Assembly (NCBI GenBank): GCA_963695105.1
Contig: CAVOGC010000008.1
Coordinates: 16,030 to 80,029 of the forward strand
Reading direction: 5' to 3'
DNA from: an uncultured Gammaproteobacteria bacterium
Lineage (GTDB): Bacteria; Pseudomonadota; Gammaproteobacteria; Competibacterales; Competibacteraceae
Length of the DNA: 64,000 bases
Below, one piece after another: positions 2,651-53,300 of the stretch (its first letter is position 1; each line of letters begins with the position of its first letter). The translations under genes and the position numbers were made by a program. The notes under the pieces were generated by a model. It searched no databases. It had not been told where the DNA came from and saw nothing but the letters and a program-made list of their open reading frames with translations.

Positions 2651-3154
2651 TTATCGCGTGAGGCGCTTCAGAACCTTGTCGGTGGCATCCACTTGCGGGC
2701 TGGCGTACAGCGTCGCGCTATCGTTGATGACCAGGTCGAAACCTTCTTCCTTGGCGACACTGTTGATCACATCCAGCACCTGCTTCTGGAACTTGCCCAA
2801 CTCCTCGTTGCGGCGCAGGTTGAAGTCCTCGCGGAATTCATCGCTGGTCCGCTTCAGCTCCCGGGCTTGATTGCGGATGTCGCCCTCCAGATTGCGGCGC
2901 TGGCTGTCGCTCATCACCGCCCCATCCTTGGCCAGTTTCTCCTCCAGCCGGCGCAGCGACTTCTGCGCCTCGACCAAGCCTTTTTGCCGCGGCGCGAATT
3001 CCTGTTCCAGCCGCTTACTGGCCGATTCGGCTTGCGGCGCGCTGCTCAGAATCTTGGCGATACTGACGAAGCCGATTTTCAGATCGGCCGCCTGGACCAG
3101 GGAAAGAGGCAGCGCCAGAGCGGTCGCGGCCAACAACTTGCAGATCAGCTTCAC
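2651..3154 (-). CDS. skp: periplasmic chaperone Skp/OmpH
   Basis: OmpH-like coiled-coil protein with signal peptide ([22 protein letters not shown]); probable GTG start at 3154 preceded by GGAGG; ORF track start 3220 probably too long. Confidence 0.8.
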
Positions 3155-3219: not shown

Positions 3220-5508
3220 TCAGTTAAACGGCACGCCAAAGGAGAACTGGAAAACCTCCGTCTCATCGTCCGGCTTATCGTTGAGCGGAGCAGCGACGCT
3301 CACCGCAATGGGTCCGAGCGGGGACAACCACAACCCGGCAATACCGACCGAATAGCGCAGGTCGCTGGCGTCGAAATCACTCGGAGTTGCGAAGACATTG
3401 CCGACATCGAAGAACGCCGCCATCCGCACGTTTTCCGATTTTTCCAGGAACGGCACCGGCAGAATCATCTGTGTATTGGCGACGGTCTTGAACGCACCGC
3501 CGCTCGGTTCGTTATTGCTGTAGCGGGGACCCAGCGTATTGGACTTGTAACCCCGCACCGACCGCAGGCCGCCCGCATAAAAATTTTCGAAAAAGGGCAA
3601 CCCGTCGGAATTACCGTAACCGTCGCCATAGCCGATATCCGCCCCAAGCGTCCAAGTCAGCCACCGGGCAAAGGGGTAGTACACCACCCCCCGGTAGCTG
3701 AGCTTGTAGTATTCAGCGTCGCTGCCCGGCACGGCGAGTTCGGCCGAGATTTGATTCAGGCTGCCGCTGGTCGGAAAAATAATCCGGTTGCGGCTGTCCC
3801 GCGCCCAACTGGCATCCAGTTTGAATTCGTTGAAGGTGTCGCCGTTCTGCCTGATATATTCCAGGATTTCAACGGGCGTGCCGGTCGTCGTGTCGATCGT
3901 AATATGATCGTAGCCGGGCAGCAGCAGCAGCGTATCGAATTCGTTAAGCGGGAACCCGAAACTGACCTGGGCGCCGTAGCTGTTGAGCACATAGTCGGCG
4001 GTGTTGACCTGCGCGGCGTCGATATCCCGATAGTAAAGCCGGAACCCGCGGCTGATACCGTCCGGCGTATAGTAGGGATTGTTATAGAAAAGACTGTAGT
4101 TGGCGCCGGCATCGCTATTGTTGAGCACCAGGCTCATCTGGTTGCCGGTGCCGAGGAAATTGTTCTGGGTCACGCTCGCGTTGAGCAACAAACCCGAATC
4201 CTGGCCGTAGCCGATGCCGAACAGCAGACTCCCCGACGGGCGCTCGACCACGGTGTAATTCACATCGACCTGATCGTTGGTTCCGGGCACGGCCGGCGTC
4301 TCGACGCTGACGCTTTCCAAATACTCCAGGCGCTGCAAGCGCGTCTTGGAGCGGTCGAGATCCTTGGTCGAAACCCAGGCGCCTTCCGCCTGACGCAGTT
4401 CCCGCCGCAGCACTTCGTCCTGGGTTTTGATGTTGCCCTGAAAGTTGATGCGCCGCGCGTAAACCCGCTGGCCCGGATCCACCACGAAGCTCAAGGCGAC
4501 TTTTCGGGTTTCGTCGTTGACTTGGGGGACGGTATTGATATTGGCGAACGCATACCCCTCCTCGCCCAGACGCTCGCTCAATTTCTTGGTGGTTTCGGCC
4601 ATCTTGGCGCGGGAAAAGGTTTCGCCCGCCTTGATCGTAATCAGCTCCCGCAAATCCTGCTCCGGGACCTCGCCGAAATTTCCGACCAGTTGGATGTCTT
4701 CAATGGTGTAGGGCTCACCCTCGGTGATGTTGATGGTGATGTAGACATCTTTCTTGTCGGGCGTGATCGAAACCTGAGTGGAATCGACGTTGAACTTGAG
4801 ATAGCCTCGATCCAGATAAAAGGAGCGCAACGTCTCGATGTCGGCCGCCAGCTTCTGCTTGGAATACTGATCGTCCTTGCTGAAAAAGGACAACCAGCCG
4901 GTGGTGGAGGACTGCAACAGGCCCAGCAGTTCCTTGTCGCTGAAAGCCTGATTGCCGACGATATTGATCTGGCCAATGCTGGCCACCGCGCCTTCCGAAA
5001 TCTCGATGGTGATGGCGACTCGATTGCGCTCCAGAGGCCGCACCTGACTTTCGATCCGCACCGCGTAACGGCCACGGCTGTAATACTGTCGCAGCAGTTC
5101 CTGTTCCACCTTGTCGAGCAGGGAGCGATCGAAGACCCGGCCCTCGACCAGACCGACCTCGGCCAGCGCCTTCTTCAGGTCGTCGGTGCTGATATCCTCA
5201 TTGCCGGTGATCCGAACCTCGGAAATCGCCGGCCGCTCGGTCACGGTCACCACCAGCACATTGCCTTTGCGTTCCAGGCTGACATCGGTGAAGAATCCGG
5301 TCTTGAACAGCGCGCGGATGATTTCCGGATATTCCTGCTCGGAAACCGACGAACCGACCTGTACCGGCAGGTAGTTGAACACGGTGCCAGCGGAAATGCG
5401 CTGCAAGCCATCGACCTGGATGTCCTGAACGACGAATTCGCCGGCTCGCGCCCCGCAGGCCGCGACCATCAGACCGAAAGAGAAAATCAGGCGGCGATAC
5501 AATTTCAT
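3220..5508 (-). CDS. bamA: outer membrane protein assembly factor BamA (Omp85)
   Basis: 783-aa ORF with POTRA repeats and C-terminal Omp85 barrel ending ..GVPFN; signal peptide begins at [22 protein letters not shown], so start 5508 preferred over 5571 (5571 would overlap rseP). Confidence 0.9.
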
Positions 5509-48594: not shown

Positions 48595-49446
48595 ATGGCG
48601 ATGCAATCCCGCTGCTACCGCGCACTCGGCCCTCACGGCTTCCACCGGGTTCACTACACCGAATGGGGCGATCCTCACAGCCCCAAGGTCTTGATCTGCG
48701 TTCACGGCCTGACCCGCACCGGCCGCGATTTCGACTTTCTGGCCGCCGCGCTGGAGCACGAATATCGGGTGATCTGCCCGGACGTGGTCGGGCGCGGCCA
48801 GAGCGACTGGCTGAACGACAAGAGCGATTACACCTATCCGCTCTACGTCAACGACATGGCCATGCTGCTGGCGCGGATCGACGCCGACCGGATCGACTGG
48901 ATCGGCACCTCGATGGGCGGGCTGATCGGCATTTTCCTGGCCAGTTACGCCGGTTCGCCGATCCACAAGCTGGTGATCAACGATATCGGCCCGCGCATTC
49001 CCGCCGCCGGCTTGCAGCGGATCGCGGTCTATGTCAGCCAAGTGGTGACTTTCGACAGCATCGAGAAGATGGAAAAATTCCTGCGCACCATCGCCGTCAC
49101 CTTCGGCAACCTGAGCGACGAACAATGGCGGCACATGACGATCCACAGCTCGCGACAACTGGAAGACGGCCGCTACACGCTGGCCTACGATCCCGGCATC
49201 GCCGAGAACTTCAAGAAGCTGGATTTGAAGGATATCGACCTGTGGCCGGTGTGGGACACCATTCATTGCCCGACCCTGGTGCTGCGTGGGGCACATTCCG
49301 ACGTACTGGACCACCCGGACGCCGTCGCCATGACTGAACGCGGCCCCAAGGCGAAACTGATCGAATTCCCCGGCATGGGCCACGCCCCGGCGCTGATGGC
49401 CGACGACCAGATCGCGGTGGTGCGCGACTGGCTGCTGGCGGATTGA
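48595..49446 (+). CDS. alpha/beta hydrolase
   Basis: GTSMGG nucleophile motif, ICVHGLTRTG, C-terminal GMGHAP. Confidence 0.75.
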   Translation: MAMQSRCYRALGPHGFHRVHYTEWGDPHSPKVLICVHGLTRTGRDFDFLAAALEHEYRVICPDVVGRGQSDWLNDKSDYTYPLYVNDMAMLLARIDADRIDWIGTSMGGLIGIFLASYAGSPIHKLVINDIGPRIPAAGLQRIAVYVSQVVTFDSIEKMEKFLRTIAVTFGNLSDEQWRHMTIHSSRQLEDGRYTLAYDPGIAENFKKLDLKDIDLWPVWDTIHCPTLVLRGAHSDVLDHPDAVAMTERGPKAKLIEFPGMGHAPALMADDQIAVVRDWLLAD

Positions 49447-49449
49447 GGC

Positions 49450-49614
49450 ATGCCGTGGCGCATCGCTGGGATCATTCTCCCGGTGTTCGCCGCCGCCGGC
49501 ATCGGCTGGTTGTACGCCCGCTGGAAACGGCCGGACCTTGCCCCCCTCAACCAGATCAACATGGACGTGCTGGCGCCGCTCCTGGTGTTCTGGGCGATCG
49601 AACCATCGCGTCTC
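49450..49614 (+). pseudogene. N-terminal fragment of an AEC-family (auxin efflux carrier-like) transporter
   Basis: MPWRIAGIILPVFAAAGIGWLYARWKRPDLAPLNQINMDVLAPLLVFWAI resembles AEC transporter N-termini; beyond about 49610 the ORF is just antisense of hlyIII. Confidence 0.4.
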
Positions 49615-50229
49615 ACGCGACAAAAAAAGAATCGTCACGTAATGACTGACGCTGCCGGCCAGCACGAACAAATGCCAGATGCCGTGAAAATGTCTGACCT
49701 TCTCGTCAAACACATAGAAAACCAGGCCAACGGTATAAAACAGGCCGCCCGCCAACAGCCAGATGAAGCCTTCCCATGGCAGGGCTTGCAGCAGCGGTTT
49801 GAGCGCCACCAACACCAACCAGCCCATCAGCACATAAACCACCAATGACAGGACGCGATTGCCTTTTTGGGGCAGCGATTCCAGCGCGATCCCCAACACC
49901 ACCAAACCCCAAATAATACCGAATATCGTCCAACCCCAACCGCCGCGCAGGGTGACCAGGGTAAAAGGGGTATAAGTGCCGGCGATCAGGAAATAAATCG
50001 AGTAATGATCCAGCTTGTGAAAAAACCGTTTTGCCCGACCGCGCAAGCTGTGATAAAGCGTGGAAACGGTGTAAAGCAGAAATAGAGTGGTTCCGTAAAC
50101 GCTGAAGCTCACGATCTTCCACGGATCGCCCTGCCGCGCCGCCACCACCACCACGACCACCAAACCCGCCAGCGCCGCCACCGCGCCGATCAAATGGCTA
50201 ATGCTATTAAAACGCTCACCCTTGTACAT
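49600..50229 (-). CDS. hemolysin III family (HlyIII/PAQR-like) membrane protein; as sequenced the frame stays open to 48580
   Basis: MYKGERFNSISHLIG..HYSIYFLIAGTYTPF..HGIWHLFVLAGSVSHY typical HlyIII; start ATG 50229; expected C-terminus near an A7 run (49611-49617). Confidence 0.7.
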
Positions 50230-50253
50230 ACACACCGCGCCTTGCGACCATTC

Positions 50254-50344
50254 CGAATCCCGAACCCCGAACCCCGAACCCCGAACCCCGAACCCCGAAC
50301 CCCGAACCCCGAACCCCGAACCCCGAACCCCGAACCCCGAACCC
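50254..50344. repeat. heptanucleotide microsatellite (CGAACCC)x12 perfect + 1 imperfect
   Basis: Direct read: cgaatcc cgaaccc x12; between stop of topB-recQ fusion (50345) and start of hlyIII (50229). Confidence 0.95.
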
Positions 50345-53300
50345 TCAACGCTTTCTGCCCCCGCTCCGTTTGCGCCGCGCCCCACTCTTGGCCGCCGCCT
50401 CCCGCAACCGCACCGCCCCCACCTCGCCGATACCCGCTTTCCGGCCCGCCTCGGTCAGATAAACCCGGCGGAAGGGAATCACCCTGCCGTCGCGACTGAA
50501 GGCGTCCTCGCGCAATTCGAGCAGACCGGCGCCGGTCATCGCCTCCAACAGTCGTTCGAACTCCCGCCGCTCGACCCCCTCCGTCAGCCTTTCGCACAAC
50601 TGCCGGGGCGTTTGACCCTCGCGCCAGCGTAGCGCGTCCAGCACCTGCAAGGCCCGTTCGCTCTCGACCCGATTCAGCCGGCGGGTGCGCCGGATCGTCG
50701 CCGCCTCCGGCGCGCACACGTCGCAGATCCCACAGGGCTGGTCGTCGTCCCGGTCGCCGAAATGCCGCACCAGCCGGACCATGCGGCAACCGGTCGCCTG
50801 ATCGGCAAAATCCAGAATCTGCTTCAACTCGCTCAGCTTGTGCTCACGCTGCCGCTGGTAGGGCGGACACCAGCCGTCCTCGCCGCGACTGAGGTTGCCC
50901 TCGACATCGCGCCGGGCGCCGCCATGCACCAGCAGCTTTTCCACGGCGGCATCGAACTCCTCCAGCGCCATGCCCGACCGGTCGCGCAACAGCACCCGGG
51001 GTTGAGGATCGCCGCCGAGCGCCTGAAAGATCGCCGCCAGCCGCTCCGGGTCGGGGTAGCCGCGCCGGAAGAAAAACTCGTGGGTGCGCAGATCGGCATA
51101 GGAATACAGCAGGATGGCGCGGGCCGGCTGACCGTCGCGCCCGGCGCGACCGATTTCCTGGTAATAACCCTCGACGCTGCCCGGCAGGGCGGTATGAATC
51201 ACGGTGCGGATATCCGGCTTGTCGATGCCCATGCCGAACGCGATGGTGGCGACGATCACCTGCAAGCGGCTGGCGCCGAACAACCCTTGCACCCGCTCGC
51301 GCTCCTGCGGCGTCATCCCGGCGTGATAGGCGGCAGCCGGATAATTCGCCCCCAGTTCCAGCGCCAGCAACTCGGTTTCCTTGCGAGTCGGCGCGTAGAC
51401 GATGGCGGGCCGGCGATCCGGATCGGCCAGCACCCGCCCGACCGCCGCATGCCGGTCGGCCATCGGCGTTTCCACCGTCTCGACCGCCAGATTGGCGCGA
51501 CGAAAGCCGTGGATGTAGCGCATCGCCTCCGGCATGTCGAGCTGGCGCACGATGTCGTCCTGCACCAGCACGGTGGCGGTCGCGGTCAGCGCGATCACCG
51601 GCGCCGGCCGCAACAGGGGCAAATGCCGGCCCAGCATCCGGTAGTCCGGGCGGAAATCGTGACCCCACTGCGAGATGCAGTGCGCCTCGTCGACCGCGAT
51701 CAGGGCCGGCTTGCGCTTGGCCAGCATTTCGGGAAAACCGGGCACGCTCAGCCGCTCCGGCGCAATGAACAGATAATCCAGTTGGCCCTGCAAATACTCG
51801 ACGCACACCTGACGCGACGTGGCCCGGTCGCGGCCGGAGTGGATGCGTTCGGCCCGCAGGCCCAGCTCGCACAATTTGGTGACCTGATCTTCCATCAGCG
51901 CGATCAGCGGCGAAACCACCAGCGTCGTCCCCGCCCGGGCGATGCCGGGCAACTGAAAGCACAGCGACTTGCCGGCGCCGGTCGGCATCACCAGCAACAC
52001 GTCCCGGCCCTCGGTCACGGTCCGGCACACCTGTTCCTGATACGGACGAAAGGCTGGCAAGCGAAACTCGCTGTGCAGCAACTCCAGCAGACGGTCCACC
52101 GGCACCGGTTCCCGTCGCGGCGCGGCTTCTCGACTCTCCCCTCCTCCATCGATGGCGAGGGGGTTGGAGGGTGAGATCGGCCGCGCCACCGCGAACGCCT
52201 GGACCACCGCTTCGCCGACGTAACCGGCGATGGCGGTCATGAACCCGTCCAGATCTCCCTCGCCGCGCTGGATGCGCTTCAGCCGCGCTTCCCACTCGCC
52301 GGTCATGATCGGGCTTTTAATCGGTGGCTGCACCGCCTGAATCAAGCCAATGCCGCGCTCGGTGGCGTTCAGCGCTTTGCCGTCGCGAGTCAGATACCGG
52401 CGTTTGAGCAAAGTTTCGATGATGTCGGCGCGGGTGGCCGGCGTGCCCAGCCCGCTGTCCTTCATCGCCGCCGACAGCTCCTTGTCCTCCAGAGCCCGGC
52501 CGGCGGTTTCCATCGCGGTGAGCAGGGCCGCTTCGGTCAGACGCGGCGGCGGCCGGGTCTGCTTGGCCAGCTCGCGGACGTCCAGCACCCGCAACGGCTG
52601 GCCAACGGTCAACCCCGGCGGCAGGCTTTGTTCGGCCTCGTTCTCCTCGGTTGCCGCGCCAGCCTTGGCCTTGGCCTTGCGCGTGCCGGCGGCTTTTTCC
52701 GCCGCCGGCACGGTTTGCACCTCCAATACCTTCCAACCGACCTGCTCCACCGCCGTGCCGCTGCTGTGATAGCGATCGACCACGATCACGCCATCCGCTT
52801 CGCTCGTGGCGATCGCGGTGATCAGCGTGGTCACCGCCCAGAGGTGATCGTCGTGCCAGGCCATCAACAACCGGCGGCAGATCAGGTCGTAAATTTTCCG
52901 CTCGTCGGCGCTCAAGGCGGCACGCGCCGGCAGCGGGGTGGGAATGATGGCGTGATGGTCGGTCACTTTGCCGTCGTCGACGAAGCGCTTGCCCAAGAGG
53001 CGCTGGCCGCAGCCCGGCCCCAACCGGTCCTGATAGGGTGGCTGGATCGCCGCGACCACCGCGCCCAGCGTCGCCGCGACCGCGCTGGACAGATGGCGGC
53101 TGTCGGTGCGCGGGTAGCTGATCAGCTTGTGCTGCTCGTACAGCTTCTGGGCGAGGTCCAGCGTGGTCTGGGCGCTGAAGCCGTATAGCCGGTTGGCGTG
53201 GCGCTGCAATTCGGTCAGGTCGTACAGCAGGGGCGGGGCGGCGCGGCGGGTTTCGGCGGTACGGGATTCGACGGCGGCCTTTCCCGTCTGGGCGCGGGCG

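Follow-up and report, generated by a model that had tools for sequence, protein, structure and literature searches.

A stop-anchored (GGGTTCG)n array between a TopoIII-RecQ fusion gene and hlyIII in a Competibacteraceae genome: probably a young slippage expansion

Organization of the locus

The window, i.e. the whole 64 kb stretch of DNA analysed here, originates from a Competibacteraceae genome and carries on its minus strand a TopoIII-RecQ fusion gene followed by hlyIII (Table 1). The two genes are separated by 13 tandem heptamers, 12 of which are perfect, and by a short non-repetitive spacer. On the minus strand the layout is TGA-(GGGTTCG)12-GGATTCG-GAATGGTCGCAAGGCGCGGTGTGT-ATG, and on the plus strand the array reads as one CGAATCC followed by 12 copies of CGAACCC. 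It begins 0 nt past the TopoIII-RecQ stop codon and ends 24 nt short of the hlyIII start codon. The original prediction, which had placed 13 heptamers between the topB::recQ stop at 50345 and the hlyIII ATG at 50229, was thus correct in its coordinates and distances. It had also listed an in-frame ATG at 50385 upstream of the array; the position is indeed in frame and upstream, but the codon found there is GTG.

Tandem Repeats Finder reports the array at 50253-50344 with a period of 7, 13.1 copies, 98% matches and a score of 177; the runner-up in the 64 kb window reaches a score of 78. A search of the whole window with a two-unit pattern, allowing up to two mismatches, returned 12 overlapping matches against 1.46 expected. 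All of them lie inside the array, and none of 100 shuffled sequences reached 12. The 64 kb window therefore holds a single array and no further two-unit seed. Likewise, no inverted partner of the array was found. The original prediction had further described long perfect microsatellites as a rarity in high-GC chromosomes, which is contradicted by literature summarised in Rehm et al. 2015 (PMC4692102). As relayed there, longer repeat runs are commoner in non-pathogens with large genomes of >60% G+C.

Table 1 Features at the TopoIII-RecQ/hlyIII junction (positions of the window)
Feature	Position	Strand	Basis and remarks
TopoIII-RecQ fusion gene, 1271 aa	50345..54160	-	ORF and Pfam; TGA 50347-50345 abuts the array
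Heptanucleotide array	50254..50344	-	Direct reading; (GGGTTCG)x12 then GGATTCG on the coding strand
Non-repeat spacer GAATGGTCGCAAGGCGCGGTGTGT	50230..50253	-	24 nt; direct reading
Shine-Dalgarno-like AAGG	50243-50240	-	In the spacer, 10 nt ahead of the hlyIII ATG
hlyIII (PAQR/HlyIII family)	49613..50229	-	Pfam HlyIII 1.2e-43; homologues; alignment
Upstream in-frame GTG (50385) with 'GSGFGVR' extension stretch	50345..50385	-	Overlaps the TopoIII-RecQ 3' end in another frame; judged non-coding in the hlyIII frame from homologue starts and alignment
T-run in hlyIII	49622-49628	-	A7 on the plus strand; 1-nt deletion by alignment
Remnant of Mem_trans gene (auxin-efflux-carrier type)	49450-~49600	+	First ~50 codons remain

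The Pfam domains Toprim, Topoisom_bac, DEAD, Helicase_C and RecQ_Zn_bind were recognised in the TopoIII-RecQ product. A type IA topoisomerase (Toprim and Topoisom_bac) and a RecQ-type helicase are thereby fused in one polypeptide of 1271 aa. That a quadruplex-prone array lies right behind a RecQ helicase gene is probably a coincidence, because the relatives lack the array.

The hlyIII product matches 205-aa homologues as far as residue 202, and these homologues begin at the same methionine (MYKGE/MYEGE). Nine bases ahead of the stop codon a T-run, which is TTCTGTTTTTTG or T8 in relatives, is reduced to T7 (TTCTTTTTTTG) in the window. This 1-nt deletion puts the ancestral TGA (49615-49613) out of frame and replaces the last three residues (FVA*), and the ORF extends 344 codons to 48580, antisense through an alpha/beta-hydrolase gene. 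It reflects either an error in sequencing the homopolymer or genuine decay of the gene. A large deletion of the hlyIII 3' end was rejected, as the alignment shows only the single missing nucleotide in the T-run. Beyond hlyIII, most relatives carry a 291-aa Mem_trans gene in convergent orientation, of which a fragment is left in the window. The Mem_trans loss is common to the window and its closest relative and is therefore a real, shared deletion; it is a separate event from the 1-nt deletion in hlyIII.

The spacer in related genomes

For comparison 28 loci with HlyIII homologues were retrieved (labelled with L-numbers). The HlyIII protein of the window is 93-96% identical to 205-aa proteins of Candidatus Competibacter, of Competibacteraceae genomes and of wastewater metagenomes, and the closest homologues among the matches listed share 193 of 205 residues. 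In the loci that include the upstream region, hlyIII is preceded on the same strand by a TopoIII-RecQ orthologue (1248-1262 aa). The genes downstream of hlyIII vary among lineages. The spacer between both genes is hypervariable in the alignment and ranges from 69 to 154 nt. Its conservation is limited to the last ~45 nt before the ATG, GGTTTCGAGTCTTTCGGAATGGTCACAAGGCGTGGTGTGTATG, with conserved alignment columns from TTCGGAATGG through the start codon. The 24-nt spacer of the window represents the 3' part of this sole conserved block.

Directly after the TopoIII-RecQ stop codon, and always there, the relatives carry zero to three copies of an (A/G)GGTTCG proto-repeat. In the closest relative (L016) the sequence past the stop is TGA GGGTTCC GGGTTCG GGG..., in five further loci (L017-L021) TGA AGGTTCG GGGTTGG, and in a complete genome of 3.6 Mb (CP065007, L011) TGA (AGGTTCG)3. 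The C. phosphatis-type loci are without the proto-repeat; here TGAAGGT is followed by a GC-rich hairpin, GGGCATG-ATATG-CATGCCC. Altogether 164 kb of the relatives' loci contain one 3-copy seed of the heptamer. The 13-unit array is absent from all compared relatives, whose copies are degenerate and whose spacers are otherwise unrelated.

Two assemblies of another Competibacteraceae lineage show a scaffold gap filled with N in place of the spacer (L023 and L024, about 2900-3000). Where it is resolved upstream of hlyIII, in L025-L028, it holds a REP-like palindrome, GTCATTCCCGCGAAAGCGGGAATCCAG, which is duplicated in L026 together with about 100 nt of flank. The TopoIII-RecQ/hlyIII spacer is a hot spot for differing repeat insertions.

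Exact look-up of the TopoIII-RecQ protein, of the 283-aa hydrolase and of RibH returned no sequence of the same species in which copy numbers could be compared, and the protein search listed no HlyIII homologue of more than 94% identity. A locus-specific flank pattern gave no match in JGI metagenomes. The pattern 'TGA + 2 units' gave 11 matches, all in unrelated organisms, and none of the genome matches listed for the heptamer resembles the window outside the repeat.

Expression signals and predicted structure

A sigma70-like promoter was not detected on either strand of 49300-50800, a region that covers ~570 nt of upstream sequence, and at the array a consensus scan of the same region revealed no terminator. 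Scans of the corresponding stretches in three relatives were likewise negative for promoter-like and terminator-like sites. The sequence past the array, GAATGGTCGC, has no T-run, so that the array does not qualify as an intrinsic (Rho-independent) terminator. Rfam 15 yielded no match at E <= 1 on both strands of 49900-50700. The conserved same-strand gene pair and the missing promoter and terminator signals would fit a joint transcript of both genes; alternatively, hlyIII may be served by a promoter within the TopoIII-RecQ gene.

These results bear on the proposal of a phase switch with the repeat located between a promoter and the start codon, which they do not support. The scans gave no promoter-like site, it is the stop codon of the upstream gene and not hlyIII to which the array is anchored, the relatives are without it, and the published class of comparable repeats is not linked to phase variation. 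The accompanying idea that each unit shifts the promoter spacing by 7 bp is without support, since promoter elements could be placed on neither side of the array. Furthermore, a repeat of a phase-variable locus would be expected to persist across related strains or species, and this array does not. Phase-variable control of hlyIII is possible but unsupported.

The G-rich strand contains 13 G-tracts (GGG/GGGG) with TTC between them and is predicted to offer room for up to three tandem quadruplexes. With quadruplexes allowed, the quadruplex-aware ViennaRNA fold of the G-strand RNA reaches -76.6 kcal/mol. Without quadruplexes a long hairpin of -37.6 kcal/mol (z = -6.2) is predicted. It consists of 6-bp blocks in which UUCGGG pairs with itself by two G-C and four G·U pairs. 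Between the 3' end of this predicted structure and the AAGG there would be 10 nt. The RNA of the C-rich strand is unstructured (0 kcal/mol). As single-stranded DNA, both strands form canonical hairpins no better than shuffled sequences, and on the basis of these folds only a quadruplex or an i-motif is a candidate for a non-B structure at the DNA level. Pairing of the TopoIII-RecQ 3' end with the ribosome-binding region across the array was also considered and rejected, as it appeared in one fold only and, judged by eye, is absent in the relatives.

The minus strand of the whole window contains 10 canonical G-quadruplex motifs, defined by four G3+ tracts with loops of 1-7 nt, and three of these lie inside the array; the plus strand contains none. 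The GC skew of the plus strand is negative throughout 47-53 kb.

The same heptamer in other genomes

When prokaryotic genomes, one per species, were searched for exact (GGGTTCG)4, at least 119 stretches were obtained (L029-L147). These are at least 119 non-orthologous loci with arrays of four or more copies, 4-56 units long by unit extension. The hosts include Planctomycetota, Acidobacteriota, Bacteroidota, Chromatiaceae (Thiocapsa, Lamprocystis) and Wenzhouxiangella, furthermore Lysobacter/Xanthomonas, Rubrivirga, Paenibacillus, actinomycetes, cyanobacteria and others. Shared flanks were not found between any two of the listed loci, even within a genus; (GGGTTCG)n arrays therefore arise independently and turn over quickly. 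Many of those listed are situated at contig ends. An association with RecQ, TopoIII or HlyIII genes was rejected, as each of them occurs in one of the 119 listed loci and in none of these cases adjacent to the array.

The position of the arrays relative to stop codons was evaluated by means of open frames of at least 450 nt ending just before the array, for which no gene caller is needed. On the 5' side of the G strand such a frame ends within 25 nt in 19 of 90 listed arrays (11 within 5 nt), compared with four of 98 (two within 5 nt) at the equivalent position of the C strand. The difference between the strands is significant at both distances (Fisher p = 5.5e-4 for 25 nt and 0.008 for 5 nt). 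Eight of ten ORFs ending within 5 nt of an array possess Pfam domains, and these are of unrelated function: VanZ, heptosyltransferase, epimerase, peptidase M16, Ser/Thr kinase, Pol IV, DNA alkylation repair and HTH. Downstream of the listed arrays crude gene calls indicate a co-directional gene in some cases and a convergent one in others. An arrangement flush to the stop codon with the G strand as sense strand is thus typical for GGGTTCG arrays. The same arrangement in the window ties its array to the TopoIII-RecQ 3' end rather than to the hlyIII start. In the literature searched no report on a GGGTTCG unit in bacteria was found.

At the junctions TAG and overlapping TA|G stops are frequent. 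Some unrelated metagenome contigs carry short heptamer arrays after a stop-like TGA, followed by an inverse array (L148, L155 and L158, about 4850-4990; L156, about 2560-2760). One of these pairs is (AGGTTCG)3...(CTTGAAC)n, another (GAGACGT)n...(CTTGAGA)n; they are capable of forming hairpins and resemble the 'inverted repeat pairs' described for Xanthomonas.

Origin of the array

Two to three degenerate heptamer copies occur in the closest relatives at exactly the position where the window has an almost pure array. This bears out the earlier assignment to the slippage-type microsatellites. Since the relatives carry zero to three proto-repeat copies at the same stop codon, the array has to be seen as a lineage-specific expansion and not as a conserved regulatory device. 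That it is a real microsatellite which expanded recently is well supported, and its copy number is likely to be unstable.

The history of the locus may be pictured as follows. An (A/G)GGTTCG proto-repeat at the stop codon of the TopoIII-RecQ gene would have served as seed and presumably grew in this lineage by slipped-strand expansion from two or three to 13 copies. The growing array would have replaced an otherwise unconstrained intergenic spacer, most of whose ancestral sequence is lost. The last two units of the array (GGGTTCG GGATTCG) can be aligned to the conserved block at its 5' part (GGYTTCG RGTCTTTCG), so that a plausible first step is the loss of the sequence between heptamer-like direct repeats that bordered the spacer on either end. 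The array is most likely transcribed with its G-rich strand as RNA. This RNA would fold into quadruplexes or else into a long hairpin rich in G·U pairs, and the structure would stop 10 nt short of the ribosome-binding site of hlyIII. Its consequence would be at most a graded and presumably small effect, for example as a transcript boundary, by attenuation, or by dampened translation of hlyIII. We regard the array as a hypermutable, largely neutral by-product and not as an evolved ON/OFF switch.

We therefore consider it rather probable that the array is a young slippage expansion of a stop-anchored G-rich heptamer, hypermutable and either without function or with a graded effect only. Several observations do not sit easily with this reading. 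The array deviates from the published class of G-rich heptamers, as described below, in its unit, in the number of its units and in being solitary within 64 kb. By analogy with the transcribed heptamer array in the hmw 5'-UTR of Haemophilus influenzae, for which a copy-number-dependent effect on expression is described (PMC12721329), 13 pure copies at a distance of 10 nt from the ribosome-binding site could exert a substantial copy-number-dependent effect on hlyIII. Furthermore, the preference of the arrays for stop codons and for one strand, seen across phyla, points to a possible function or directed mechanism which a neutral by-product leaves unexplained.

If the array is a young and probably unstable microsatellite in a freely evolving spacer, it matters little for the locus itself, and annotators should consequently read neither a conserved regulator nor a coding sequence into it. 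There are also practical aspects: such arrays break short-read assemblies, and in wastewater plants they can serve to tell Competibacter strains apart.

Alternative explanations

A contingency locus or rheostat, in which the array belongs to the 5'-UTR of hlyIII or to an intercistronic leader and its slippage tunes or switches hlyIII via RNA structure or processing, appears unlikely to us. It is consistent with a pure array of 13 copies, which is hence probably unstable, with the short distances to the start codon (24 nt) and to the AAGG (10 nt), and with the long hairpin or quadruplexes predicted for the transcript. Moreover, it has a precedent in the hmw heptamer, whose hairpin is processed by RNase III and whose copy number is inversely related to expression (PMC12721329; PMC2651432). 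However, the scan of 49300-50800 gave no promoter-like site, the array is missing from all compared relatives, and it is anchored to the upstream stop codon like GGGTTCG arrays beside unrelated genes elsewhere. The target also seems ill suited: HlyIII/PAQR would rank as a conserved membrane protein of housekeeping type in a free-living bacterium of activated sludge, and not as a typical phase-variable surface antigen, and this hlyIII copy carries a frameshift at its 3' end. Finally, a comparable class of G-rich heptamers is without a signature of phase variation (PMC4692102).

Quite improbable, in our estimate, is a role as 3'-end element of the TopoIII-RecQ transcript, where a quadruplex or hairpin would act as boundary, as attenuator of read-through or as protector of the mRNA 3' end. 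Such an element would amount to a terminator or insulator that depends on no factor and has no U-tract. The contact of the array with the stop codon at 0 nt, its G-rich sense strand and the enrichment of the same arrangement for GGGTTCG across phyla argue for such an element, as does the GC-rich hairpin at the equivalent place in C. phosphatis-type relatives. In Xanthomonas, starts and ends of transcripts coincide with repeats capable of forming quadruplexes more frequently than with control repeats (PMC4692102). But there is no U-tract and no intrinsic terminator by consensus scan, and the relatives manage with zero to three copies. Four units suffice for one quadruplex, so that 13 units rather resemble a runaway expansion, and for the repeats studied by Rehm et al. 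no regulatory role could be demonstrated (PMC4692102).

Comparably improbable is the broader proposition that (GGGTTCG)n is a recurrent stop-flush sense-strand element with independent origins across at least 10 phyla, either as an RNA module or as the footprint of directed mutation. As a module it would act through RNA folded into a quadruplex or G·U hairpin, at the 3' ends of transcripts or at junctions between cistrons, as a boundary or stabiliser independent of a U-tract. As a footprint it might reflect, for example, an expansion of G-rich non-template DNA, driven by R-loops and quadruplexes, at the point where ribosomes leave the mRNA. In either case the Competibacter array would be an extreme example with 13 units, placed at an operon junction beside the gene of a RecQ-type, i.e. 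quadruplex-unwinding, helicase.

An artefact, in which wrongly assembled repetitive reads gave rise to the array or to its number of copies, is very improbable. Many GGGTTCG arrays at contig ends of public assemblies do show that assembly is disturbed by them, and the frameshift in the adjacent hlyIII is a change in homopolymer length, as is typical of errors in long reads. However, both flanks are collinear with the orthologous loci, sister lineages carry the proto-repeat at the same junction, an array of 91 bp is short enough to be spanned by ordinary reads, and the neighbouring genes are intact, including the ORF of 1271 aa.

A coding repeat, i.e. translation from the GTG at 50385 into an HlyIII with a (GSGFGVR)n N-terminal extension that copy number would turn ON or OFF, as the original prediction had envisaged, is hardly conceivable: the frame is indeed open to the hlyIII ATG, but it is open trivially and uninformatively, since none of the frames of the unit contains a stop codon; moreover, the start codon is a GTG within the TopoIII-RecQ coding sequence, all 120 homologues listed have ~205 aa and those compared start at the MYKGE/MYEGE methionine, and the sequence upstream of hlyIII is unrelated in the relatives.

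Comparison with known repeat systems

The best-studied functional heptamer array, and the closest model for the original prediction, is located upstream of hmw1A and hmw2A in H. influenzae, where (ATCTTTC/TGAAAGA)n mediates phase variation and is transcribed as part of the 5'-UTR (PMC12721329; PMC2651432). In both systems a heptanucleotide repeat, whose unit is not a multiple of three, is situated upstream of a start codon in 11 to about 38 copies, and the long hairpin of the hmw leader RNA has its counterpart in the one predicted for the window array. The hmw repeat, however, lies in a mapped 5'-UTR downstream of known promoters, at a distance of about 70-100 bp to the start. It is AT-rich, present and variable in all hmw-positive strains, and belongs to a surface adhesin of a host-adapted pathogen, whereas the window array is absent from relatives.

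Less similar are the STRR heptanucleotide repeats of the cyanobacterium Calothrix PCC 7601, as cited in PMC4692102, and the intergenic TAACTGA direct repeats of Beggiatoaceae (PMC4679880). As far as these sources describe them, they are likewise intergenic tandem heptamers of free-living bacteria for which at most a post-transcriptional role has been proposed, but they consist of other units without G-tracts and occur in hundreds of sets per genome.

A third system is the class of G-rich heptameric simple sequence repeats (SSRs) described by Rehm et al. 2015, with GGGAATC in Xanthomonas and GGGGA(C/T)T in Nostoc/Anabaena (PMC4692102). About 90% of these SSRs are intergenic; they are found preferentially on the sense strand, 0-50 nt past a stop codon or overlapping it, fold into quadruplexes in vitro and differ in length among close species (PMC4692102). 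Most of them are transcribed, with the preference for transcript ends mentioned above. They are not associated with surface or pathogenicity genes, for which reason the authors held phase variation to be unlikely (PMC4692102). The number of units ranges from 2 to 26 with a mode of 4, and about 180 arrays exist per 5 Mb in Xanthomonas (PMC4692102). According to literature relayed in the same paper, heptameric SSRs are over-represented in bacteria, and their unit length was proposed to favour polymerase slippage.

The window array shares with this class a 7-nt unit with a run of at least three G, at least four G-tracts and a predicted capacity for quadruplexes, the intergenic position on the sense strand at 0 nt from the upstream stop, a length that varies among close relatives, and neighbouring genes of ordinary function. 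It differs in its unit, as GGGTTCG (= GGGGTTC) corresponds to neither GGGNATC nor GGGGAYT and thus lies outside the published consensus, in its 13 units compared with a mode of 4, in being the single array in 64 kb where the class is dense and dispersed, and in its host, a Competibacteraceae MAG-type genome instead of Xanthomonas or Nostoc. Judged from the sequence, the array would therefore belong to the Rehm class by structure and position while deviating in unit, length and solitariness. The independent recurrence of stop-flush arrays with G-rich sense strand extends a pattern so far described only for Xanthomonas and cyanobacteria, and GGGTTCG arrays offer a simple, testable case for deciding whether quadruplex repeats act at transcript ends or mark a strand-specific expansion mechanism.
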